Of a stretch of 64,000 nucleotides of DNA, positions 15,557 through 31,903 are shown one piece after another. A program made the translations under genes and the position numbers. Source of the stretch: Saprospiraceae bacterium (GTDB lineage Bacteria; Bacteroidota; Bacteroidia; Chitinophagales; Saprospiraceae); contig OZ244968.1 of NCBI GenBank assembly GCA_965222645.1, forward strand, positions 5,386,008 to 5,450,007, written 5' to 3'. Under the pieces are notes generated by a model. It worked only from the letters and a program-made list of their open reading frames with translations. It was not told the origin of the DNA and searched no databases. Each line of letters starts with the position of its first letter. Positions within the stretch are counted from its first letter, which is position 1.

Positions 15557-17786
15557 ATTTAATTTATAGAATATTCATCTACACTGCAAATGTGAAATAT
15601 ATGCTCTGCAATGCCGGCTCATGCAATGATAGAAAAACATTTCTTCTTTCCGGATTAACATATGTAAATAAAATGGGGGTGATTCTTGATCGATTTCGCC
15701 AAGGGCGGGGCGAGGTATGGTGTACCTCGAAGTCAGAAGCTTGCGCGTGAAGTGGGTGAACTACTGCATCCTTGGTGAGCAACAATTATAATTACTTTTC
15801 TTTTTTGTGACTAAAAATGTCCTTTCCCACTTTTTGTCAGTCCCGACGATATCTGTCGGGATGGGTCATTCTTGAGCGATCCCGCCAAGGGCGGGGCGAG
15901 GTACTGTGTACCTCGAAGTGAAATGAACCACGTACAGTGGGTGGGTGAGCTCCTACATCCTCGGTGACCCACATCTTGGGTCTTCACTAGATTTTATAAG
16001 TGATTTCTTCCGCTTTTTTCTTGATAAAAAAGCTAGCAAAAAATCAAGACTGTGAATGATGGCCTAACATCCTGTAAGCTCTTGCTTACCCACGTGCAAT
16101 CAGAGCCGTTCGGCATATTCATACTGAGCCTACTCTTTTTACCGAGGACTATGCCTCACTACGCTGATTGCTTCTTTGCTTACCTTCAGAGCAACAGGCT
16201 GTTTGGCCACCATTCAAGGTCGATCAAAGGGATTGCCATATGGTATAGCTCGGGATCATTTCTTGCGTGCGTGACTGCTTTGAATGATAGCTTAGAATTC
16301 CTCTTCAACGAAATAGATTATTTTTGGAATGTCTAGAAAAGGTGATTTCAAAGTCCCCCAACAAGTTCTTACTGCTGGCCTTTGATCCGTGAGCCAGGCT
16401 CTGACTTCCTTAGTGGAGAAGTCTATTGCTTGTGATCAGATTTTGTCTGCATTTATGCTCCTTAGCTCTTTTCCGCTGGATAAAATCTAACGCTACAACC
16501 GAAGTGTGGGCCCCCACCTACGGATGCGAAGTCGGAGTCATCAAAACTATTTTAGGACTTTTATGCCAGCGCTCCCAAAGACCTTTGAAAAAGGTCTAAT
16601 CCCGGCCTTATTTTTTTTAGTGATAAAATGCCAAAAAACCGTTAAGAACTTTAAAGAGTTTGAACGAGTAGAATTTTCATCGAAAGATCAAACTTGAATA
16701 AAAGCAATCCAATATAGTACGTCAGGATTTATGTGAGTTTTTAAAGTTTAGGTTTTTTGGGATTTTATTGCGTTAGGAAAAAAATATAGCCGGCGATTTT
16801 GTCAAACTTTTGTCGCCAAAAGTTTGCCCTACCGGAGGTAGAATATTTTTATTGTATGTTCTTTCAAAATTCCGCTGGATAAAATCTAACGCTACAACCC
16901 AAGTGTGGGGCCCCACCTACGGATGCGAAGTCGGAATCCATAGGATTTTTTTCGAGTGCCTTTCACCCTTTTTGTCCTATTTTAACGGCAAAATATCTAA
17001 GGCGAGGTAGGCACGCTCCTGATGTCTGTAGGCGGACTCGTCGTGGGGTTGATGAGCTGTCTTATATTGAATGATGTTCACCCTATTAATTCTTGCTGGA
17101 TAAAATCTAACGCAACAACACAAGGTGTGGGGCACCACCTGCGGATGCGAAGTCGGGGTCAGGGAAGTGGGAAAGAAGGGAAGTAGGGATTCCCAAGCCC
17201 GGAGCGAATCGAAGATCAACCGAAGCGAGATCCCGATATCAACCGGAAGGAGATCGTCGGGTCGTTGGGAGTGAAGGGATTGGTTAGCCCGGAAATAATT
17301 ATTCATTCTTTTTTGTGACCAAAAAAAGAAACAAAAAAGTCTTTCTCTGTAGATCTTTTGCCTAATAGGCCAAACCCACCCGCTCGTGATCCCAGCCGTT
17401 CGCTTTTTAGATCATCACTTTGTTGCGCTTGATCGGAAGATGAGATGCCTACCTTCTTTTATGTCCCCATATGCTCACTTCGGCATCACTCCTCTACCTT
17501 GCACTCTTTGTCCTATTTTAACGGCAAAATATCTAAGGTGCTGTAGGCATGCTCCGCATACCTTGAGGAGGACTCGTCGTCGGGTTCTTGAGTTGTCTTA
17601 TAGTGGTTGTTATACATCCATTGACTTTTCTACTAGACTACGTAGGATTAATCATGGGGGATCATGTAAGTTTGGTAGTAGGGTAATTGGGCCACTGATA
17701 AAATCTAACGCCTCGATCCAGGTGAGAGACCAGAATCTATGGATGCGAATTCGAAGTCTACAAATTATTTTGGAATACAGTCTTAT
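15557..17786 (+). repeat. Gene-free mosaic repeat block A (modules M1, M9, M3, M4, M2, M7, M8, M5)
   Basis: Shares modules with blocks B and C. The M1 hairpin module CGCCAAGGGCGGGGCGAGGTAC...GTACCTCGAAGT is at ~15684 and ~15868. 16168-16860 is nearly identical to 20990-21680. M2 (TTTGTCCTATTTTAACGGCAAAATATCTAAGG...) is at 16971 and 17517. M3 (...CTACGGATGCGAAGTCGG) is at ~16473, 16872, 17094 and 17695. The only ORFs here are repeat-derived. Confidence 0.8.
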
Positions 17787-18956: not shown

Positions 18957-19245
18957 TTTCCTCCTTCTCGTCAGTTTCTACTAAAAGTTTTTTAAATGCC
19001 TTTCTGAATTCTCGCCAACTAAACTTTCTATCCTTATCCTGATCCAGCTCGCGTATCAACTTCTTTGCGACGATTGCCGATAGGAAATTGCTTATTTCTG
19101 CCTCTGAAATTAAATTCTTAAGCTCGGTCGATGACAGATAACCGTCACCGTTCTTATCAAAAAAGTGAAATGCTTGTTCCGGATTATCAAAACTCTGTGT
19201 GATGAGAATCTTGATCTTGTTTAGAATTTCTTTCTTACCAGCCAC
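18949..19245 (-). CDS. EF-hand calcium-binding protein
   Basis: 98 aa with a canonical EF loop DKNGDGYLSSTE and a second degenerate loop DQDKDRKFSWREF. Confidence 0.7.
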   Translation of the reverse strand: MAGKKEILNKIKILITQSFDNPEQAFHFFDKNGDGYLSSTELKNLISEAEISNFLSAIVAKKLIRELDQDKDRKFSWREFRKAFKKLLVETDEKEEIA

Positions 19246-19328
19246 TTGGATTTACTTTTATTATGAAACGCCAAGATACGACATTACACATCAATATGTT
19301 GCCCCTCTACCCGTCTCTTTATTGCATT

Positions 19329-20792
19329 CTAGGCATTGTAAGTGGTGGAAGCCGTACCACCGCCTCGACCAGTCCAGTCAGTATGAAAGAATTCGCCTTT
19401 CGGCTTATCTAACCGCTCGTATGTATGTGCTCCGAAATAGTCTCTTTGAGCCTGGAGCAGATTGGCAGGTAATCGCGCTGTGCGATATCCGTCGTAGTAT
19501 GTCAAGGCAGATGCAAATGCGGGGACGGGAATGCCCTGAGCTATAGATGTGCTAACGACATTCCTCCAGCTGGTCTGGGCATCTGACAGTTTTTCCTGAA
19601 AATAACTGTCCAAAAGCAGATTGTTAAGATTTCGATCTTTATCAAATGCGTCTTTGATATTTTTCAAAAAGACCGATCGAATAATGCATCCCCCTCTCCA
19701 CACTTGTGCAATTGCCCCATAATTTAGACTCCAGCCATATTCCTTTGCAGCTTCACGCATCAATACAAATCCCTGGGCGTAGGAAATTATTTTAGATGCC
19801 AAAAGGGCTTGACGTATATCCTCGACGAAGACTTTTTTATCTCCATTAAATACCGGACTAGGCCCATCTAAAATCTTGGATGCATTTAGGCGCTCTTCTT
19901 TTTGTGCTGATATGCACCGTGCAAACACCGCTTCTCCTATCATCGTAAGAGGTATACCCAGATCAAGAGCGGTTATCGCAGTCCACTTTCCCGTTCCCTT
20001 TTGCCCTGCCGTATCCAGGATTTTTTCGAGTAAGGGCTCTCCATTTTCCTTGTACCCCAGTATGTCACTTGTGATCTCGATGAGATAACTATTTAACTCT
20101 CCCTGATTCCATGCTGCAAAAACATGATGCATTTCCTCGGCTGACATTTTTAACAACACTTTCATGATATAATACGCTTCACAAATCAGCTGCATATCTC
20201 CATACTCAATCCCATTATGTACCATTTTTACAAAGTGGCCCGCACCATTTTCTCCAATCCAATCACAACAGGGCTCACCATTTACTTTGGCAGAAATTGC
20301 TTGCAAGATCGGTTTTACCATTGGCCATGCTTCTCTTGATCCACCCGGCATAATGGACGGACCAAGAAGTGCACCTTCTTCACCGCCAGATACCCCTGTA
20401 CCAATATAAAGCATGTCCTTGCTCTCCAGCAGTTGCGTCCTCCTGTTTGTATCGGGAAAATGAGTATTCCCACCATCGATTAGAATATCTCCTTTTTCGA
20501 GAAGTGGGCAGAGTTTTTCTATCATTTCATCCACTGCTGCTCCTGCTTTAATCATCATTATGATTTTTCGGGGACGTTCAATCGATTGGACAAATTCCTG
20601 GAGGTCATCCGAACCACGAAAGTTTTTATTCACACCTCGACCATTTATGAATTTTTGGACAATGCCTTCTTCAATGCCAGGCACTGTGCGGTTGTACACA
20701 GAGACAGTAAAACCTTTTGATTCCATATTTAAGGCCAGGTTTTCTCCCATTACAGCCAGGCCTATAACACCGATATCTGATTTATCTTTCAT
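19329..20792 (-). CDS. gnd: 6-phosphogluconate dehydrogenase, decarboxylating
   Basis: 487 aa. GVIGLAVMGENLALN NAD(P)-binding start. Conserved blocks IDGGN, GTGVSGGEEGA, GAGHFVKMVHNGIEYGDMQLI, KGTGKWT, RDYFGAHTYER. Confidence 0.95.
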   Translation of the reverse strand: MKDKSDIGVIGLAVMGENLALNMESKGFTVSVYNRTVPGIEEGIVQKFINGRGVNKNFRGSDDLQEFVQSIERPRKIIMMIKAGAAVDEMIEKLCPLLEKGDILIDGGNTHFPDTNRRTQLLESKDMLYIGTGVSGGEEGALLGPSIMPGGSREAWPMVKPILQAISAKVNGEPCCDWIGENGAGHFVKMVHNGIEYGDMQLICEAYYIMKVLLKMSAEEMHHVFAAWNQGELNSYLIEITSDILGYKENGEPLLEKILDTAGQKGTGKWTAITALDLGIPLTMIGEAVFARCISAQKEERLNASKILDGPSPVFNGDKKVFVEDIRQALLASKIISYAQGFVLMREAAKEYGWSLNYGAIAQVWRGGCIIRSVFLKNIKDAFDKDRNLNNLLLDSYFQEKLSDAQTSWRNVVSTSIAQGIPVPAFASALTYYDGYRTARLPANLLQAQRDYFGAHTYERLDKPKGEFFHTDWTGRGGGTASTTYNA

Positions 20793-23633
20793 TTTCTAAT
20801 ATTGAATTTTTCACTAGAAAGGCGATTGCCATATTTCTTCCGTTTTTTCACCACACAATGTATAAATTATATCCTCTTTTCCACTTTTTTGGAAACTAAA
20901 TGTTATTCTTTATTTTTTGTGATCAAAAAAGAAGTGAAAAAGTATTGCAATAAGGATTTTCGCTTATTTCTTGATCATTCTTAAGTGATCTTCTTTGCTT
21001 ACCTTCAGAGCAACAGGCTGTATGGCCACCATTCAAGGTCGATCAAAGGGATTGCCAGGTGGTATAGCTCGGGATCATTTCTTGCGTGTATGACTGCTTT
21101 GAATGATAGCTTAAAATTCCTCTTCAACGAAATAGGTTATTTTTGGAATGTTTAGGAAGGTGGTTTCAGAGTCCCCCAGGAAGTTCCACTACTGGCCTTT
21201 GATCCCTGAGCCAGGCTCTAACTTTCATAGTGGTGAAGTCTATCACTTGTGATCTGATTTTGTCTGTATTCATGCTCCTCAACTCTTTTCTGCTGGGTAA
21301 AATCTCACGCTGCGACCCAAGTGTGGGACCCCACCTACGGATGCAAAGTCGGTGGCATCAAAACTATTTTAGGACTTTTATGCGAGCGCTCTCAAAGACC
21401 TTTGAAAAAGGTCTAATCCCGGCCTTATTTTTTTTAGTGATAAAATGCCAAAAAACTGTTAAGAACTTTAAAGTGTTTGAACGATTAGAACTTTCATCGA
21501 AAATCTAACGTGAATAAAAGCAATCCGATATAGTACATCAGGATTTATGTGAGTTTTTAAAGTTTAGGTTTTTTGGGCTTTTATTGCGTTAGGAAAAAAA
21601 TATAGCCGGTGGTTTTATCAAACTTTTGCCACCAAAAGTTTGCCCTGCCGGAGGCAAGAATGCATTTAGTGGTTTGTCACATTATTCGCCAAAAGACACC
21701 GTAGCCTCTTTATCCAGATCGTAGCCACCAACAACTTGGATGTCAGGAATGGCAGCCTCAAACAGGCTAAGAAGTTGAATTCCTACTTACTTTTAGGCCC
21801 CAAGGCTCACTTCGGCATCACTCTTTTACCTCACCCTTTTTGTCCTATTTTAACGGCAAAATATCTAAGGTGCTGTAGGCATGCTCCGCATACCTGTCGG
21901 ATGACTCTCCACTTTTTGACAATATCATTCATTCTTTTTTGTGACCAAAAAAGAACCAAAAAAGGTCTTTCGCTGAAGATCTTTTGCCTACTAGGCCAAA
22001 CCCACCCGCTCGTGATCCCAGCCGTTCGGTTTTTCGATCATCACTTTGTTGTGCTTGACCGGAAGTTGATATGCCTGTCTTCTTTTACGTTCCCAAATGC
22101 TCACTTCGGCATCACTCCTTTACCTTGCACTCTTTGTCCTATTTTAACGGCAAAATATCTAAGGCGATGTAGGCATGCTCCGCATGCCTGGTTGGTCGCT
22201 CGCTGTAGGGTTTATATGCAGTTTAATATGGACTGTTGTTCATCTCATTACTTCTTATAGACAAATCAGACGGAATACATTTGTGATCTCCGCCTAAGGA
22301 TGCGAAGTCGAGGTCATCAAAACTATTTTAGGACTTTTATGCGAGCGCTCCCAAAGACCTTTGTAAAAGGTCTAATCCCGGCCTTATTTTTTTTAGTGAT
22401 AAAATGCCAAAAAACCGTTAAGAACTTTAAAGTGTTTGAACGAGTAGAACTTTCATTGAAAATCTAACTTGAATAAAAGCAATAGGATATAGTACGTCAA
22501 GATTTAAGTGAGTTTTTAAAGTTTAGGTTTTTTGGGCTTTTATTGCGTTAGGAAAAAAATGTAGCCGGTGGTTTTATCAAACTTTTGCCAACAAAAGTTT
22601 GCCCTGCCGGAGGCAAGAATGCATTTAGCGGTTTGTGACATTATTCGCCAGAAGATACCATAGCCTCTGTATCCAGATCGTAGCCACCAACAACTTGGAT
22701 GTCAGGAATGGCAGCCTCAAACAGGCTAAGAAGTTGAATTCCTACTTACTTTTAGGCCCCAAGGCTCACTTCGGCATCACTCCTTTACCTTGCCCTCTTT
22801 GTCCTACCTTAACGGCAAAATATCTAAGGCGATGTAGGCATGCTCCGCATGCCTGGTTGGTCGCTCGCTGTAGGGTTTATATGCAGTTTAATATGGACTG
22901 TTGTTCATCTCATTACTTCTTATAGACAAATCAGACGGAATACATTTGTGATCTCCGCCTAAGGATGCGAAGTCGAGGTCATCAAAACTATTTTAGGACT
23001 TTTATGCGAGCGCTCCCAAAGACCTTTGAAAAAGGTCTAATCCCGGCCTTATTTTTTTTAGTGATAAAATGCCAAAAAACCGTTAAGAACTTTAAAGTGT
23101 TTGAACGAGTAGAACTTTCACCGAAAATCTAACTTTGAGTAAAAGCAATCCGATATAGTACGTCAAGATTTATGTGAGTTTTTAAAGTTTAGGTTTTTTG
23201 GGCTTTTATTGCGTTAGGAAAAAAATATAGCCGGTGGTTTTATCAAACTTTTGCCAACAAAAGTTTGCCCTGCCGGAGGCAAGAATGCATTTAGCGGTTT
23301 GTGACATTATTCGCCAGAAGACACCGTAGCCTCTGTATCCAGATCGTATCCACCAACAACTTCGATGTCAGGAATGGCAGCCTCTAACAGGCTAAGAAGT
23401 TGAATTCCTACTTACTTTTAAGCCTCAAGGCTCACTTCGGGATCACTCTTTTACCCCACCCTTTTTGGCTATTTTAACGGCAAAACATCAAAGGTGCTGT
23501 AGGCATGCTCCGCATACCTTTAGGATGACTCGTAATTGGGTTGATGAGTAGGTTTTGTTAATATTTTGGCTTATAATCACTTGATATTAATGCAATGTCT
23601 TTTGTTGATCAAGTCCATTTGATGAAATTCTCT
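20793..23633 (+). repeat. Gene-free mosaic repeat block B, including about 3 tandem ~665-bp units (M3-M4-M2)
   Basis: The M2 anchor TTTGTCCTA(T/C)(T/C)TTAACGG is at 21838, 22133, 22798 and 23463 (variant), giving spacings of 295, 665 and 665. GGATGCGAAGTCG is at ~21339, 22301 and 22964. An extra M5+M2 insert lies at 21900-22260. The left part, 20990-21680, duplicates 16168-16860. Confidence 0.85.
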
Positions 23634-24908
23634 CTACACAGTAAATCTGCCTTTATAAGCCCATAGGCCCAGTGCGGGATTTGAGATAAAATAAATCTCT
23701 TCTCCGGAGGGCAATGTATTAAACCCGTCTAGCAGGGTTCCGAGATCATACTTTTCGAGCATTTTATTGAGATCGGCATAGCGATAGTGTACGCTTTCGA
23801 TTTCCTCCCTGGTGAGATTTCCAGGGCAGTATGTGATTGAAAATCGACCCTCGCTGCTGGAATGCATAATATGTGCAGCTGCGCTTAAATTATTGCGTAG
23901 ATCTTGATTTTCTTCCAAAGCTTTTAATGTGGCTGGAGTACCGCAATAGCCATATTTTCTAATAAGTCTGTCTATCTCGCTGTCCTCACCAAATTCGGAT
24001 AGTCCAGGTGCCAGTACGATAAGCTCCCCATTATCGGCCATCGCCAATCTCGTGCGATAAATACTTTTATTACCCAACCAGGTAGTTTTGAATTCGGCAG
24101 GATCTAAATAAACAATAACTTTTTCCAATGGCTGGTCAAACAAAGTAAAATTGACCTTTAGAGATAATTCGGCTGCCAAATGAAAAACTTCAACCGTGTC
24201 TCCGATGAACAATCCCCGGGTTACCAATTTACCATCCTCACTTAGAGCAACGACCGTCAATATATAAACGACTGGTAATTCTTTAATAAAATGATCAGAT
24301 GCATAATTCAATAAATCCCTAACAGGATTTTTTGCCCGTCCCAACACGTTTTCAATACCAAATGCGGCACCAACAAAGTGGCTCTGATTTATTCCCGCTG
24401 AGCCACCGGTGCCGACAAAGAGATTTTTATTGTAATTGGCCATACCCATAACTTCGTGGGGAACAACCTGGCCAACAGATAGGATGAGATCATGACCTCC
24501 AGAATAAATTAAATTATTTAATTGCGCAGGCCAATCCGACTCGACCAGGCCTCCTGTCATCTCTTTGACCTGTTCTCCCGGGATGGTGCCTACTGTTACG
24601 ACATCGTTTCTCCAATCATGAACACGAAATAACTCATGGGGGATGCCGGGATACATTTTATCTATCTCTGTGGCCGTCATAGGTTTGTGTGTACCCAGTG
24701 CCGGCATGATGTCCGTCAGAGCGCGGTCATAATGTTCGTGAATAAAAGTCGTAATCAATCCTGCGCCAGAGTGTAGTCTGGTAATATCAGGAGGTACGGC
24801 GATCACCTTTTTTCGAGCGCCCAACTTTTCCAAAGTGGAAAAAACAGCATTTTTGATATCCTCTCGCGATAAATCTGTTGTGCTACTTCCTGTTTGATAA
24901 TAAATCAT
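23634..24908 (-). CDS. LarA-like (lactate racemase N-terminal domain / DUF2088) protein
   Basis: 424 aa. The N-terminal region ...KKVIAVPPDITRLHSGAG... and overall length resemble DUF2088/LarA-family proteins found next to sugar-acid kinases. Motif memory only. Confidence 0.5.
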   Translation of the reverse strand: MIYYQTGSSTTDLSREDIKNAVFSTLEKLGARKKVIAVPPDITRLHSGAGLITTFIHEHYDRALTDIMPALGTHKPMTATEIDKMYPGIPHELFRVHDWRNDVVTVGTIPGEQVKEMTGGLVESDWPAQLNNLIYSGGHDLILSVGQVVPHEVMGMANYNKNLFVGTGGSAGINQSHFVGAAFGIENVLGRAKNPVRDLLNYASDHFIKELPVVYILTVVALSEDGKLVTRGLFIGDTVEVFHLAAELSLKVNFTLFDQPLEKVIVYLDPAEFKTTWLGNKSIYRTRLAMADNGELIVLAPGLSEFGEDSEIDRLIRKYGYCGTPATLKALEENQDLRNNLSAAAHIMHSSSEGRFSITYCPGNLTREEIESVHYRYADLNKMLEKYDLGTLLDGFNTLPSGEEIYFISNPALGLWAYKGRFTV

Positions 24909-24939
24909 TCTATTTATATCCCTAATCTGAAAAAACTGA

Positions 24940-26019
24940 TTACCTTTTTACACGTGCATTTCCTTCCCAAATACTCCACACCATTTCTTCATCGGTGGGA
25001 CGAGCATAGTCGGTAAATAGCGTTGTGGCCAGTGCCCCGGTAGCCCATCCAAACTGTGCCCACTTTTCCGCTTCCCAATCTCTGAGGATAGCATACAAAA
25101 CACCTCCGACAAATCCATCACCTCCCCCAATTCTATCTAAAATCTCGATTTTCCTTGGCTCAATTACATGCCATTTGTCACCTTCACTAAGTATTGCACC
25201 CCAAAGATGTTCATTGGCACTTACCACTTGCCGCAACGTCGTGGCAAAAACAGAGGCTCCCGAAAATTTAGCCTTAGCACGGCCAATCATTTCTTTGAAT
25301 CCATCTATTTTTGACTTTAGGCCTTCCCCACCGGCTGGCGGACCCTCAATACCCAAGCACAATTGAAAATCCTCTTCATTCCCAACGAGTATGTCTGCCA
25401 AGGAGGCAATTTCGGTAAATATCGCATGAAGCTCTTCCTTCCTGCCCTTCCAAAAAGAAGCCCGGTGATTTAGATCAAAGGAAATCAGTGATCCGTATTT
25501 TTTTGCCGTTCTGGCGATTTCAAGACAAAACTTACTTGTATCTTTTGAAAGTGCCCCGATAAGACCGGACAAGTGAACAATCTGTACTCCTTCGGAGCCG
25601 AAAATCCGATCCAGGTCAAAATCACCGGCCTTCAGTGATCGGCCCACTTCACCCGCTCGATCGTTCTGAACTCGTGGACCGCGAGTGCCAAATCCACAAT
25701 CTGCAATGTTGATTTGATGGCGATATCCCCAGGGACCTCCCTGTTCTACTTCTGGTCCTTCAAAATCCATATGTCTTGCTCCCAGATCACTCTTGATGTA
25801 ATCTGCTATCGGACTGTGCTTTACGAATGCCGTCAGCACTTTTACCGGAAGACCTAGAAAAGAGGAAACACTTGCAACATTTGATTCTGCGCTGGTTGCG
25901 TGCATTTTAAACAGGTCACTACTGTACACCGGCTGCCTATCATAGGGTGTAAGTCGGATGCCCATACTTGTGGCTACCAACAGGGAGTATTGACAATCTC
26001 GTTTCAATGTTAAGCTCAT
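24940..26019 (-). CDS. PfkB-family sugar kinase (2-dehydro-3-deoxygluconokinase-like)
   Basis: 359 aa. C-terminal PfkB signature DRIGGGDGFVGGVLYAIL, and an NxxE-like LVGNEEDF. Confidence 0.8.
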   Translation of the reverse strand: MSLTLKRDCQYSLLVATSMGIRLTPYDRQPVYSSDLFKMHATSAESNVASVSSFLGLPVKVLTAFVKHSPIADYIKSDLGARHMDFEGPEVEQGGPWGYRHQINIADCGFGTRGPRVQNDRAGEVGRSLKAGDFDLDRIFGSEGVQIVHLSGLIGALSKDTSKFCLEIARTAKKYGSLISFDLNHRASFWKGRKEELHAIFTEIASLADILVGNEEDFQLCLGIEGPPAGGEGLKSKIDGFKEMIGRAKAKFSGASVFATTLRQVVSANEHLWGAILSEGDKWHVIEPRKIEILDRIGGGDGFVGGVLYAILRDWEAEKWAQFGWATGALATTLFTDYARPTDEEMVWSIWEGNARVKR

Positions 26020-26452
26020 TCTATTTTTTAGATTTTATGTGACTGATAATCGCGATTCTTCATAAGGGGATTCTGAAAAAAATTGAAGTGGTAAATAAAT
26101 AAAATATCTTAGTAAGATGACCCAAATCCTTATACGATTTTTCCGTCCGGGGACTTGAAGGGCAAATCCGTGCTTGCCTTTTACATTCGACTAGTGAGGT
26201 TACTCCGGAAATTGCCAATTTCACAAAATGAGTCAATTTTGGATGAGATTTTCACTTTTTTGAGATCGGCTGATGCCTGTGTATCAGGCGATTGAAGAAA
26301 ATGAAAATATTCCTGCCTGGCATGCCTCCAGGCAGACAGGGCCAAAAGAGCCATTTTTGATTTGGCAACCTTTTCGGATTTCTATAGACTTTCCAAACTC
26401 AATTATCACTTTTTTCAAATCGCTCCGCGGGTCAGTTGAAAAAAAAGTATGC

Positions 26453-27454
26453 TCATGCTGCATAGTCAATCTTGTAAGTTCTTTGGTTTTTTACACAAGA
26501 GAAAACCCTACCTACGATCTTGTTACGTATAGCGTTTAAGACCAACATTTTGTTTTTACCTTGTCTGACCTTCCGGATATAGTACGCCTTCATCTCTGGA
26601 TTGTTTCTCACCGAGCTTACAGCGCACATATGTAAGATTGTCTTGAGTGTTTTGTTTGCCATGGGATGGACTTTGGTTCTTCCCCTAAGACTCGATCCTG
26701 AGCTGAATTCGAAGGGAGCAATACCTGCAAAAGATGCCAATTGCTTGGCATTGCTAAAACGTGTAAATCCCCTGGTGTAGACCAGAAGATATGTCGCCGC
26801 AACAAATCCAACGGATTTTACCGAGGTGGCAAGTTCATACTTGACCTTAAGGTCTTCGTTTGATCTGATGGCCTTGAGAATCTTCACCTCTAGAGCTTTT
26901 AGTTCCTCTTTCAAAGCTTCTAAACTCTTGCTACAAGCTTGATGAAGGGCTTCCGATTCACTGACTAACCCAACACTTTTGAGCTCCTTAATCGGCTTGC
27001 TTAAAGACAGTAGTGAGGTCTGTAGTCTTTCTCTAAGTGACAGATAATCAGATATTTGAAGCAGTGCTTTGTCCATCTGTTCATAGGACTTTGCCTTGTC
27101 CTGGTTGCGAAAGGCATAGCTCAGTATGCGTTCAGCATCAATCTCGTCACTTTTTCCCCTTTGGATCCCTCCTGACCACTTTATTTGAACTGGAGTTTCA
27201 ACCCAGACAAATGCTTCCTTTGATTGAAGATAGGTAACCAATAGCCGATGATAAATACCGGTGTTTTCCAAACAGATCAAAGTACTGTTCATTTTCAGCC
27301 CCTGCTTCTTCATCCAATTATACAGTTTATCGAATCCACCTAAATTGTTGGCAAAGCAGGCTTTTCTCACGCTTCGATCAGCTGTATTCTCGCCCAAGGC
27401 TAGATCTATTTTCCTTTTCGATACATCGATGCCCATAATTGAGTCCCATTTCAT
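26453..27454 (-). CDS. IS110-family transposase/recombinase (DEDD RuvC-like N-terminus + Tnp C-terminal domain)
   Basis: MGIDVSKRKIDLAL start and ...LENTGIYHRLL..., with C-terminal SVGFVAATYLL...FSNAKQLASFAGIAPFEFSSGSS..G.TKVHPMANK..K..LHM.A blocks typical of IS110/IS1111. Confidence 0.9.
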   Translation of the reverse strand: MKWDSIMGIDVSKRKIDLALGENTADRSVRKACFANNLGGFDKLYNWMKKQGLKMNSTLICLENTGIYHRLLVTYLQSKEAFVWVETPVQIKWSGGIQRGKSDEIDAERILSYAFRNQDKAKSYEQMDKALLQISDYLSLRERLQTSLLSLSKPIKELKSVGLVSESEALHQACSKSLEALKEELKALEVKILKAIRSNEDLKVKYELATSVKSVGFVAATYLLVYTRGFTRFSNAKQLASFAGIAPFEFSSGSSLRGRTKVHPMANKTLKTILHMCAVSSVRNNPEMKAYYIRKVRQGKNKMLVLNAIRNKIVGRVFSCVKNQRTYKIDYAA

Positions 27455-27485
27455 TTTAATACCTTTAATTGTTTAGAAATTAGCC

Positions 27486-27648
27486 AAATGTCTAAGCATA
27501 CATCTGCGGTCTAATTCCCTGATAATAGGCCTTGGTGCCTCAATTTCTATCTGGACTCTGGATGTAAGATTCACTGAAGGACTAAATCCGAAAATAGGTC
27601 CTTAACCTTTGAGTAAGCTCTAGGTCCCTTCAGTGAAGCTTAGACATT
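27486..27648 (-). ncRNA. Candidate IS110 bridge/seek-type guide RNA (structured leader upstream of the recombinase)
   Basis: Nested inverted repeats: AATGTCTAAGC (27487-27497) pairs with GCTTAGACATT (27637-27647); TTCACTGAAGG (27570-27580) pairs with CCTTCAGTGAA (27626-27636); TACATC (~27499) pairs with GATGTA (~27561). The position is 5' of the recombinase, as in the IS110 subgroup. Confidence 0.35.
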
Positions 27649-27704
27649 CGACGATCGCAAGATCACAACTTTTTTGCTGATGCAAGTCTAAGGGAGTAGG
27701 CTCG

Positions 27705-28529
27705 CTAGTCCAGATCTACGGATCGATATGCTGCAATGAGGGCTGACTCTCCTTCGAGGCCGTCGATAAAATTACCGTGTTCCATACCCAAAATGCCACG
27801 ATATCCCTTATTGTGGATATGTTTAAAGATGTTTTGGTAATTGATCTCGCCCGTGGTGGGTTCGTTTCTTCCGGGATTATCACCGATTTGAAAATAGCCA
27901 ATCTCATCCCAAGCATTATCCATATTGGGGATCAGGTTGCCCTCTTCAATCTGTTGATGATAGATATCAAATAGAATCTTACAGGAAGGGCTATCCACTG
28001 CCCGGCAAATAAAATAACTTTGAGGGATGGTAGTCAGAAAGACTCCGGGGTGATTATAGAAATTGAGGGGCTCCAGCACCATGACAAGGCCATGTGGTTC
28101 GAGAAGTGCAGCGGCTCTCTTCAAGGTTTCGATGACGTGTGCTGTCTGGTATCCAATTTTTACCTTCAGATCCAGCCGGCCAGGTATAGTGGTCATCCAA
28201 GTTGCATTTACGCGCTTTGCCACATCTATGGAGGACTTGATATCATCGAGAAATGCTTGCCTCAAGGATTGATCTGCAGTCGTAATTGTGGGTTGATTAC
28301 TTCTCACTCTTCCTCCTACAAAGACACCCATTCGCATTCCCAGCTGGGCCAAAGTTTGTCCTATTTTGTCCTGCAGCGATTTTTCCTTCCGTTTGAGATT
28401 ATTGTCTTCAAATGCAGTAAAGCCCTGGTCCGCCATAAACTTGATTTGGTCGATGGGGTCTGCACCGGCATGATGTCTAAACATCCCTAGATGGGGAGCA
28501 AAGGCCATTTTAAACTTTTGAATGATCAT
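27705..28529 (-). CDS. Xylose-isomerase-like TIM-barrel protein (hydroxypyruvate isomerase family)
   Basis: 274 aa. Shows the N-terminal FAPHLGMF..., ...LEPLN..., ...FDIYHQQ...GN and ...GYRGILGMEH pattern typical of Hyi-like sugar-phosphate isomerases/epimerases. Confidence 0.7.
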   Translation of the reverse strand: MIIQKFKMAFAPHLGMFRHHAGADPIDQIKFMADQGFTAFEDNNLKRKEKSLQDKIGQTLAQLGMRMGVFVGGRVRSNQPTITTADQSLRQAFLDDIKSSIDVAKRVNATWMTTIPGRLDLKVKIGYQTAHVIETLKRAAALLEPHGLVMVLEPLNFYNHPGVFLTTIPQSYFICRAVDSPSCKILFDIYHQQIEEGNLIPNMDNAWDEIGYFQIGDNPGRNEPTTGEINYQNIFKHIHNKGYRGILGMEHGNFIDGLEGESALIAAYRSVDLD

Positions 28530-30195: not shown

Positions 30196-31903
30196 ATAGA
30201 CCGTACTTTCGCTACTAAATCCATCGCCAGGTGCCACCTCATTTTCTTATTTCACAACCAATGATTTAATCCTTTTTTCACTTTTTTGGCACCCGCCTTT
30301 CAGGCCACGCCGGCAGGGCAAAAAGTGGAGCATTCTTGAGCGATCCCGCCAAGGGCGGGGCGAGGTACTGTGTACCTCGAAGTGAAATGAACGTCGTACA
30401 ATGAGTGAGCTCCTGCATCCTTGGTGAGCAACAATTTTAATTATTTTTCTTTTTTGTGACCAAAAAAGAAACAAAAAAGTCTTTCGCTTTCGTGCCTCGT
30501 CCGATAATTATCTATACAGCTGAAGCCGATCTTTTTCGCCATCTCTTCATCATTAAAAGCCTTATGTAGCATGGCTATACGCGGTTTTACTTCTTCGATA
30601 TGACAAAAAATATCTGGCTTGATCTGTACATTTAATTACCAGACGAAACACTGGATCTTTTGCCTAATAGGCCAAACCCACCCCGCTCGTGATCCCAGCC
30701 GTTCGCTTTTTAGGTCATCACTTTGTTGCGCTTGATCGGAAGATGAGATGCCTACCTTCTTTTACGTCCCCAAATGCTCACTTCGGCATCACTCCTTTAC
30801 CTTGCAGTCTTTGTCCTATTTTAACGGCAAAATATCTAAGGCGAGGTAGGCACGCTCCGCATGCCTGTAGGGGGACTCGTCGTGGGGTTCGGGAGTTTCT
30901 TATATTGAATGATGTTCACCCTATTAATTCTTGCTGGAACAAATCTAGGGCTACAACACAAGGTGTGGGGCACCACCTGCGGATGCGAAGTCGGGGTCAG
31001 GGAAGTGGGAAAGAAAGGAGGTAGGGATTCCCAAGCCCGGAGCGAATCGAAGATCACCGAAGCGAGATACCGATATCCACCGGAAGGAGATCGTCGGGTC
31101 GTTGGGAGTGAAGGGATTGGTTAGCCCGGAAATAATTATTCATTCTTTTTTGTGACCAAAAAAGAACCAAAAAAGTCTTTCTCTGTAGTGCCTCGTCCGA
31201 TAATTATCTATACAGGTGAAGCCGATCTTTTTCACCATCTCTTCATCAGTAAAAGCCTTGTGTAGCGCCACTATACTCGGTTTTACTTCTTCGACATGAC
31301 AAAAAATATCTGGCTTGATCTGTACATCTAATTACCAGACGAAACACTGGATCTTTTGCCTAATAGGCCAAAGCCATCCCACTCGAGATCTCAGCCGTTC
31401 GCTTTTTGCCGGTCATTTTATTATTTGTGATCAAAAGGTGACATTTATACCTTTTTTTTACCGATCCTCCTGCACACTTCGGCATCGCTCCTCTACCTTG
31501 CACTCTTTGTCCTATTTTAACTGCAAAATATCTAAGGCGATGTAGGCACGCTCCGCATGCCTGTTGGATCACTCGAGTTGTAAAGTGTTATATTGTGTTA
31601 TTTGAATTTTATCAACCCCATCCAATCCTCTTGTAAACACAATTGTGAGGACTCACCTCCGGACGCGTAGTTGGGGTTTACAAATTATTTTGTGACTTTT
31701 AGGGTGAGTCGAACCGAAAGACCTTTGCTAAAAGGTCTCATTCCGGTATTTCAAATTTTAGTTAAGAATGGTCATATGCATGCTGATGACGGTATCTTTA
31801 TTATTGGGCTCCGGGGCCCGGATTTGATAGTAGATCACGTTTTTTATCAAAAAATTGACTAAAAACACACGTTAAAAATCTATTTTGGAAATTCTAGGAA
31901 AAA
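30196..31903 (+). repeat. Gene-free mosaic repeat block C (M1, M5, M6, M2, M7, M3, M8; ~697-bp internal duplication)
   Basis: M1 is at 30332-30480. The M2 anchor is at 30809 and 31506 (spacing 697). M6 (GTGCCTCGTCCGATAATTATCTATACAG...ACCAGACGAAACACTG) is at 30488-30655 and 31188-31355. M7+M3+M8 at 30877-31145 is near-identical to 17033-17310. Confidence 0.85.

Follow-up and report, generated by a model that had tools for sequence, protein, structure and literature searches.

Here we describe block B, a 2841-bp non-coding stretch (positions 20793-23633) that separates gnd, encoding 6-phosphogluconate dehydrogenase, from a gene for a LarA-family nickel-dependent putative hexonate epimerase (the larA-like gene) in a Saprospiraceae genome of 6.32 Mb (G000; five contigs, 42.8% GC, 99.4% completeness). 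The window, i.e. the whole stretch of DNA analysed, comprises 64,000 nucleotides (C1:5386008-5450007), and coordinates given without a contig prefix refer to it. Block B contains three tandem units that appear to have been amplified as DNA, each of which holds a structured core whose fold is conserved across species by compensatory base-pair changes. These two findings hold at different levels, and the covariation of the core leaves the DNA-level origin of the tandem block standing.

Organization of the gnd-larA-like intergenic region

A repeat search identified three head-to-tail units (21290-23530) with a period of 665/666 bp and identities of 94-98%, in agreement with a preliminary description of this DNA that had proposed three tandem units of ~665 bp. 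Two families of 300-nt repeats, with starts at 21511/22470/23136 (96% identity) and 21331/22290/22955, are spaced by 959 and 665/666 nt, and units 2 and 3 are 98% identical across 300 nt (22092 vs 22757). Module M2, hereafter f, is found at 21798, 22092, 22757, and 23422 (spacings of 294, 665, and 665), and the first unit holds an extra 294 bp composed of M5 (module g) and M2, matching the additional ~295 bp reported earlier. Denoted by letters, the modules of block B follow one another as a b c d e f g f h d e f h d e f. One tandem period corresponds to f+h+d+e, a copy of f lies at every unit boundary, and copies of f bracket the array. With at least two head-to-tail copies at a constant period, block B is a tandem repeat; Tandem Repeats Finder detected no repeat in it because the longest period of that program, 500, is shorter than the 665/666-bp unit period.

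A coding interpretation of block B was rejected for want of a credible frame: the minus strand has no open reading frame (ORF) of at least 50 aa, plus-strand ORFs are low-complexity read-through of the repeats, and the sole protein-like stretch is a 34-aa gene fossil. No tRNA or tmRNA genes were found in block B. Its features are summarized in Table 1. The spacer next to gnd is probably ancestral intergenic DNA. Elsewhere in the genome modules a and b continue upstream for 70 more conserved nt, and the leftmost copy in block B is truncated.

All hairpins quoted in the preliminary description are present, including hpB (Table 1), CAAACTTTTG-CCAC/CCAA-CAAAAGTTTG (21619, 22578, and 23244), and a TGCC-GGA-GGCA hairpin; the T8 run, which had been placed 20 nt after hpB, follows it by 13 nt. 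Likewise, the GGATGCGAAGTCG anchors used to derive the period exist, with starts (22298 and 22963) that differ by ~1-3 nt from the figures given.

A separate all-A/T hairpin, TTCTTTTTTG-TGAC-CAAAAAAGAA, has ~41 genomic copies on both strands, two of them at 20905-20930 (TTTTTTGTGATCAAAAAA) and 21931-21956, and is also found in other genera and orders (G013, G014, G022, G037, and G038). Protein binding or a regulatory role is conceivable for this hairpin, given that one copy is found ~120 nt upstream of gnd.

Table 1. Features of block B and its flanking genes, with positions in the window.
Feature	Position	Strand	Remarks
gnd (6-phosphogluconate dehydrogenase)	19329-20792	-	TIGR00873, 759 bits; left flank of block B
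Mostly unique spacer, upstream of gnd	20793-20989	.	genome-wide coverage 1-3 copies; 28-190 bp here in congeners
Modules a and b	20990-21287	.	17 and 20 genomic copies
Module c	21288-21356	-	49 copies; reverse complement of the 5' ~70 nt of the second subfamily; includes GUGGG-loop-CCCAC hairpin
Hairpin hpB, AGACCTTT-GAA-AAAGGTCT	21397-21415	+	just 5' of the core; again at 22356 and 23021
Structured core, copy 1 (module d)	21414-21658	+	R2 covariance model 161 bits; RNA fold z-score -4.2
Module e, copy 1	21685-21786	-	fossil gene 3' end, peptide VGIQLLSLFEAAIPDIQVVGGYDLDKEATVSFGE*
Module f (M2), copy 1	21786-21900	+	52 genomic copies; hairpin AGGCATGC-TCC-GCATACCT, one mismatch
Module g (M5)	21901-22091	+	hairpin TTCTTTTTTG-TGAC-CAAAAAAGAA; with the next f, the extra 294 bp
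Module f, copy 2	22092-22190	+	665-bp period begins here
Module h, copy 1	22191-22289	+	6 genomic copies
Structured core, copy 2	22373-22617	+	R2 158.3 bits
Module e, copy 2 (gene fragment)	22644-22745	-	
Module f, copy 3	22757-22855	+	
Module h, copy 2	22856-22954	+	
Structured core, copy 3	23038-23283	+	R2 156.2 bits
Module e, copy 3 (gene fragment)	23310-23411	-	
Module f, copy 4	23422-23552	+	terminal, f1-like variant; repeat block ends
Unique spacer beyond the larA-like stop codon	23553-23633	.	coverage ~1
larA-like gene (LarA-family nickel-dependent putative hexonate epimerase)	23634-24908	-	NF052594, 638.8 bits; right flank

A core element with a fold conserved by compensatory change

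Sequence comparison indicates that module d, the ~245-nt core, represents in this genome an element of 180-300 nt that relatives also carry and that keeps its fold through compensatory changes. BLAST searches against 40 relatives matched only short pieces of the unit, i.e. the hairpins; around these hairpins, the relatives carry a repeated 250-450-nt element that is quite different in sequence while its landmarks and their order are the same. These landmarks comprise hpB, a 5' strand CC(R)G(C)CUU..., CUAUACUGUAUGAGC, and a variable apical region, followed by GCGAGUUUAUAG, UGUGACCG, and a 3' domain, GGYRG-UUUUGU-CAAACUUUUG-CYRC-CAAAAGUUUG-CCC-YRCY-GGA-RGYR. The hpB hairpin itself, with its stem changes compensated, precedes the element in five relatives (G002, G003, G010, G012, and G001).

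Two covariance models were used, one of the 3' 60 nt (R1) and one of the full-length element (R2). Across 39 distinct sequences of the 3' 60 nt, 96.7% of cells were paired and 12 of the 18 pairs had changed on both sides, a level reached by none of 500 shuffles, while controls in which the pairing was slid were paired at 32-50%. The four central U-A pairs of the 3' hairpin are invariant and its five outer pairs covary. At full length (16 sequences; RNAalifold), two long-range helices close a rod in which 18 of 28 pairs are compensatory, giving a covariation score of 0.454 (shuffled alignments, 0.169; slid alignments, no more than 0.134). The core thereby displays what is generally asked of a structured RNA, namely cross-species compensatory base-pair changes above controls, and the copy from our genome folds like those of the relatives (z-score of -4.2, compared to -3.3 for a relative's copy).

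These results bear on the contention of the preliminary description that no fold is conserved, and that significant covariation would favour a structured RNA. That contention rested on near-identical copies within one genome only; across species, the covariation signal was found and compensatory change in the core is strong. One variant cited as pair-breaking, GTGGGGCCCCAC, carries a central-base change that falls in the loop of a hairpin kept as GUGGGGUACCCAC in relatives. A second, GTGGGGCACCAC, would break a pair if real and is absent from the copies listed. The third, GCATACCT in M2, does break a pair, as had been stated; BLAST did not recover M2 from the congeners that were searched.

In the predicted fold, the T8 run pairs with an A7 run in the closing helix P1 and is therefore not a terminator tail. 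Counts of G.U vs A.C pairs on the plus strand (16:3 and 20:11) lean, with moderate support, towards the plus strand as the folded one; RNAalifold energies are alike on both strands. Within the 3' domain, the upstream pentamer of helix S1 pairs with the 'loop' of a 10-bp hairpin, S2, and both helices covary. Because no linker separates the 3' strands of S1 and S2, a full H-type pseudoknot is impossible, and the options that remain in this structural model are a two-state switch or a partial pseudoknot with triples contributed by the invariant U and A tracts. Rfam 15 covariance models (E <= 1) gave no match in window positions 19000-25000 and nothing relevant in six loci from relatives.

Insertion into a probable ancestral spacer and DNA-level amplification

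In four genomes of the same genus (G007, G008, G001, and G003), the larA-like gene is directly followed by gnd, and in three other congeners one extra gene lies between them. Because the gap is 28-190 bp in those four congeners and 2841 bp here, block B is a lineage-specific insertion of ~2.5 kb of non-coding repeat modules. Unique DNA in the gap is limited to ~200 bp beside gnd and ~80 bp beside the larA-like gene, plausibly the two parts of the split ancestral spacer. Repeat DNA would have invaded the short spacer of the ancestral larA-like/gnd pair and then been enlarged by DNA-level duplication; since the two genes are now separated, gnd would have to rely on a promoter within the ~200 unique bp beside it. 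Such a recent invasion and amplification would have split a probable operon and would account for the 'dark' 2.8 kb that lie between these housekeeping genes.

Block B is part of a genome-wide repeat family. A single 666-bp unit has 87 BLAST matches in the genome, and the whole block matches ~33 clusters totalling ~33 kb, with all matches of a given cluster on one strand. Approximately 0.5% of the genome thus consists of this repeat material, with consequences for how these Saprospiraceae are annotated, assembled, and typed to strain level. At least eight modules recur (f, 52 copies; c, 49; d, 31-37; b, 20; g, 19; a, 17; e, 17; h, 6), with 'a b c d e f', 'g f', 'b c f', and runs of 'c d' as preferred orders. 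Stretches of block B 1.5-1.7 kb in length match, at 93-96% identity, an array located 70 kb from it (C1:5476082-5479407); large composite pieces appear to move or convert between loci. Sulfatase-like paralogues are the only genes that recurrently flank the repeats in this genome.

Module e contains, on the minus strand, an open 34-codon frame ending in a stop (...LFEAAIPDIQVVGGYDLDKEATVSFGE*). In tblastn searches its peptide matched only 16 repeat copies and the C-terminus of one intact 467-aa gene (C1:3545686-3547086), the last ~28 codons of which may represent the source of the module e peptide or a paralogue of that source. A dead gene end has, in other words, been copied along with every unit. 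Moreover, 15 of 24 copies of the 3' hairpin in this genome carry an identical G.A mismatch in helix S1 (GGTGG vs CCAAC), which suggests that one slightly defective progenitor was copied. The gene fossil in each unit, the shared stretches of more than 1.5 kb, and the shared S1 mismatch argue that block B was built and amplified at the DNA level. On this point the preliminary description is borne out, also by the lack of the block from the orthologous spacer of four congeners and by the M2 copies that form the array edges.

Two other blocks of the window, A (15600-17780) and C (30196-31903), are built from the same module vocabulary. Within block A lie a complete copy of the core at 16597-16842, which R2 scores at 155 bits, and a partial one in reverse orientation (16797-16939). 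The M1 module (CTTGAGCGATCC...GGCGAGGT-loop-ACCTCGAAG; 15862-15943) is an optional insertion inside the core in relatives (locus L125 of G003; L137 and L144 of G001), and modules therefore nest in one another.

Copy number and assembly

The possibility that the three units are one mis-assembled unit deserves attention, given that contigs from short reads could not span the block: in two short-read runs, flanking contigs end at 21019/21022 and 23486. Comparison of repeat unitig depth with assembled genome-wide copies, which tests total genomic copy number and not the number of units at the block B locus, gave 4 vs 4.3-5.3x, 12-16 vs 15.9x, and 4 vs 4.95x. Because unitig depth equals assembled copy number, the repeats are not assembly inflation. 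An artefact is further opposed by the differences between units at specific positions (94-98% identity), by the distinct 294-bp insert of the first unit, by terminal f copies of differing type, and by an assembly of five contigs at 99.4% completeness. We therefore regard mis-assembly as hardly credible.

Distribution in relatives and a second subfamily

R1 identified 32 copies in our genome and 1-13 copies in 10 of 14 congeners; the element was not found by R1 in the other four. Among 100 other Saprospiraceae genera, the only convincing match was to G097 (two copies), with weak single matches (E > 1e-4) in two of the remaining 99. R2 additionally recovered compact 180-nt homologues, 3-4 per genome, in G142 and G207, which belong to another family of the order; these keep the tandem-G.A loop, with the neighbouring pair compensated. 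By BLAST, the full G006 element has 37 matches in its own genome and 25 in G005, pieces included. Copies within a genome are 70-94% alike (those of Co_bin.39 are similar by eye), and between species the core has diverged so far that BLAST matches only short hairpin motifs.

No neighbouring gene is shared across 24 loci of the genus and G097, nor across 11 loci of other genera and the second family. Copies in relatives lie in either orientation relative to their neighbours, at unrelated, non-syntenic loci. Such lineage-specific bursts at unrelated loci are typical of mobile families; the loops conserved across two families are, by contrast, typical of functional RNAs.

Each unit could be an RNA gene expressing a host-serving RNA of ~245 nt (a regulator, protein sponge, or RNP (ribonucleoprotein) scaffold), the dosage of which would be raised by tandem and dispersed amplification. 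Whole-element covariation, loop sequences conserved across two families of the order, the excess of G.U over A.C pairs on the plus strand, the fold z-scores of both the local and the relative's copy, and the retention of 3-4 copies even in small genomes of 3-4 Mb are all compatible with such an array. Against it stand the T8 run, which pairs within helix P1, the recurrence of one S1 mismatch in most amplified copies, the failure to find the element in 4 of 14 congeners, the lack of synteny among loci, and the presence of junk such as a gene fragment within the units. The -7 promoter motif of Bacteroidota is TAnnTTTG; by eye only, with no dedicated scan, no clear copy of this motif and no hairpin-plus-U-tract terminator was seen beside the element. 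We consider an array of RNA genes unlikely.

On the opposite strand, R2 also matches the 'b c' modules of other arrays, with scores of 32-45 bits. Module c, once reverse-complemented, aligns with the initial 70 nt of the relatives' element, including hairpin GUGGGG-UA-CCCAC; it therefore represents, in reversed orientation, the 5' end of a second subfamily of this element. The canonical 'c d' junction (GAAGTCGG|RGTCATC) is thus a head-to-head arrangement of two elements, and the abrupt limit after c, which several alternative modules may follow, is an element terminus.

Beyond these relatives, an exact 20-mer of hpB and its flank had no match in 185,579 species genomes, and metagenome scans returned no match for a 27-mer from the unique flank or for a gapped conserved loop pair. 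A search with the 24-mer hairpin CAAACTTTTG-N4-CAAAAGTTTG recovered metagenome-assembled genomes of Saprospiraceae and an unrelated hairpin family in Negativibacillus. This dispersed family, present in Negativibacillus and other Clostridia (L041-L081), has the exact 24-mer, apparently by convergence. A literature search on intergenic hairpin repeats of Saprospiraceae found nothing pertinent.

Candidate mobilising enzymes and element ends

The genome encodes six Y1 transposases, five Y2 (IS91-type) transposases, and several reverse transcriptase (RT) genes. BLAST of block B gave no match at or near Y1, Y2, RT, or IS110 loci, and the six Y1 genes lie kilobases from the repeats and have no similarity to them. 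Ends were inspected for the IS91-like and IS110 copies only, and the IS91-like ends are unlike the repeat modules. The IS91-like insertion sequence (IS) measures 2.43 kb (G000:C1:498197-500629, plus three identical copies), encodes a 293-aa tyrosine recombinase and a 447-aa Y2 transposase, and terminates at its 3' end in a hairpin, ATGTATGCC...GGCATACAT, followed by TCCTTTGAGTTA, the hairpin lying 12 nt before the 3' end. The IS110-family element (26200-27712) has three genomic copies, each abutting a separate repeat family of ~180 bp (~30 copies), which suggests targeted insertion into that repeat.

TnpB (PF07282) was not detected in our genome and, in the 14 congeners, is represented by one fragment in G006 with no motif beside it; IscB (NF040563) was found in none of 15 genomes. 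With TnpB and IscB absent, and hence no cognate RuvC nuclease gene, an omega RNA interpretation was rejected.

The core shows no terminal inverted repeats in our genome. In an alignment of G005 and G006, a weak pair, CAGTGGGT...ACCCACTG, can be discerned, and the BLAST boundaries of the element stop upstream of its 3' arm. A search for an empty site between G006 and G005 recovered none, as the loci diverge after a shared gene.

The enzyme inventory is relevant to a further explanation, in which the repeats are a non-autonomous rolling-circle or single-stranded DNA (ssDNA) transposon of IS91/Helitron- or IS200-like type, mobilised in trans by an HUH enzyme, with f as its 3' terminus and with failed termination producing concatemers and capture of flanking genes. 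Nearly all array sub-units do end with f, the structure is strand-specific, a gene fragment has been captured, and tandem multimers with several different periods are found, in a genome that encodes both Y1 and Y2 transposases and holds an IS91-like element whose 3' end is likewise preceded, at 12 nt, by a hairpin. However, the modules have no similarity to the IS91-like ends and block B has no BLAST match at the Y1 and Y2 loci (IS200-like ends were not inspected), f mostly continues into a conserved linker and module c so that no sharp terminus is apparent, and M2 was not found in the searched congeners though the core is present there. A rolling-circle or ssDNA transposon is an improbable source of block B.

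An integron-like cassette array, i.e. a cluster of attC sites lacking integron-integrases (CALIN), would hold units inserted as cassettes by site-specific recombination at folded attC-like sites. Known attC sites are 57-141 nt in length with R''/R' boxes, and an integron array has an IntI integrase. The co-orientation of the units and their ending in a folded, structure-conserved site recall this arrangement, but the hairpin measures 24 nt, RYYYAAC/GTTRRRY boxes were not seen by eye, the units are non-coding and nearly identical, and no integrase exceeded the TIGR02249 cut-off (best score of 110 bits vs 265, with the IntI-specific segment skipped). An integron-like origin therefore seems very remote.

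Probable origin of block B

The explanation we favour, and consider reasonably probable, is that a structured non-autonomous element seeded composite blocks, and that recombination and duplication then spread and enlarged these blocks along with their passengers. The structured element would act as a self-propagating seed, like a small non-autonomous mobile element, and folding of its single-stranded form (RNA or ssDNA, probably of the plus strand) would be required for its spread or retention. All remaining modules, together with the gene fragment, would be passengers. Triplication may have resulted from unequal homologous recombination; alternatively, gene conversion may have acted between M2 copies and involved the sister array (C1:5.476-5.481 Mb).

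Several observations weigh against this explanation. The uniform orientation and fixed order of the modules agree better with the copying of a single large composite than with modules inserting independently, and the internal loops CUGUAUGAGC/GCGAGUUUAU (tandem G.A), kept across two families, look more like functional RNA than a selfish repeat. Neither a transposase with matching ends nor, for a single element, terminal inverted repeats, a target-site duplication, or a precise empty site could be defined, and the plus strand is only moderately supported as the folded one.

More tentatively, the ~245-nt core and its 180-nt relatives could form a new class of strand-specific structured non-coding element, a possibility about which we have considerable doubt. 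According to the modelled structure, members of this putative class would share a rod that long-range helices close and an internal loop with conserved tandem G.A. Two covarying helices, ordered as in a pseudoknot and surrounding invariant U/A tracts, would mark the 3' domain. As an RNA, the core may, for instance, provide the guide or scaffold for a mobile or defence system that has escaped recognition, or may bind a protein. If such a class exists, its proliferation seeds mosaic repeat arrays in this genome. Few non-coding RNAs of Bacteroidota have, to our knowledge, been characterised, and we know of no described REP/BIME (repetitive extragenic palindrome/bacterial interspersed mosaic element) counterpart in this phylum. 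As a candidate for a new structured nucleic-acid element of Bacteroidota, the core is well supported; covariation provides a concrete fold, and a few genomes with 1 to more than 30 copies are available for comparing an RNA gene, a mobile element, or both.

Comparison with known systems

The HEARO/IscB RNAs, TnpB omega RNAs, and IS110 bridge RNA resemble the core in length (180-300 nt), in the number of copies per genome, in having a defined scaffold end followed by unrelated sequence, and in being pseudoknot-type elements. Unlike HEARO and the TnpB omega RNAs, the core occurs in a genus that has no TnpB or IscB except for the G006 fragment, and it lacks an Rfam match; unlike the situation with bridge RNA, the IS110 copies here sit in a different repeat family of ~180 bp. 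Tandem small RNA arrays such as that of NsiR1 in Nostoc are likewise intergenic head-to-tail repeats, each with a foldable element the size of an RNA. The units described here are, however, ten times longer and include a fragment of a pseudogene; visual inspection revealed no promoter or terminator for each unit, and the same modules are found at ~33 loci. An IS91/Helitron-like non-autonomous element would be expected to have a constant 3' terminus with a subterminal hairpin and ends in common with an autonomous copy, in a genome that encodes a Y2 transposase. Here, Y2 genes are present and units end in f with a hairpin, but the ends are unlike those of the IS91-like element and f usually runs into a conserved linker.

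Miniature inverted-repeat transposable elements (MITEs; ERIC, Correia/CREE, RUP, and BOX) are similar in being non-coding, multi-copy, and intergenic in either orientation, with a species-specific consensus and long rods. They differ in that no terminal inverted repeats, target duplications, or parent IS were found here; an autonomous IS with the same ends, which would mark a MITE, was not recovered, with no block B match at the IS200-like, IS91-like, or IS110 loci (ends inspected for IS91-like and IS110). Furthermore, the 3' domain of the core, with its pair of covarying helices in pseudoknot order, is not part of the rod, and loop sequences of the element are conserved across families.

The REP/BIME of E. 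coli and the Neisseria intergenic mosaic elements (NIME) are, like block B, extragenic mosaics of a few recurring short modules, many of which form hairpins, and they too occupy many dispersed loci with local arrays and are confined to a lineage. REP/BIME are made of imperfect palindromes of 20-40 nt in alternating orientation and are associated with REP-associated tyrosine transposases (RAYT; Y1). Modules of BIME/NIME are 20-150 nt in length compared to 70-300 nt here, and BIME units alternate in orientation whereas all modules of a locus are co-oriented here. Neither a GTAG-type REP head nor the NIME dRS3 boundary repeats were seen by eye, and Y1 genes, which are associated with REP/BIME, are not beside the repeats. 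Membership in REP/BIME was rejected on account of the single-strand clusters, the 70-300-nt modules, and Y1 genes that are kilobases away and without similarity. Block B further differs from BIME and NIME in that one of its modules is a long structured element, with covariation extending over ~250 nt.

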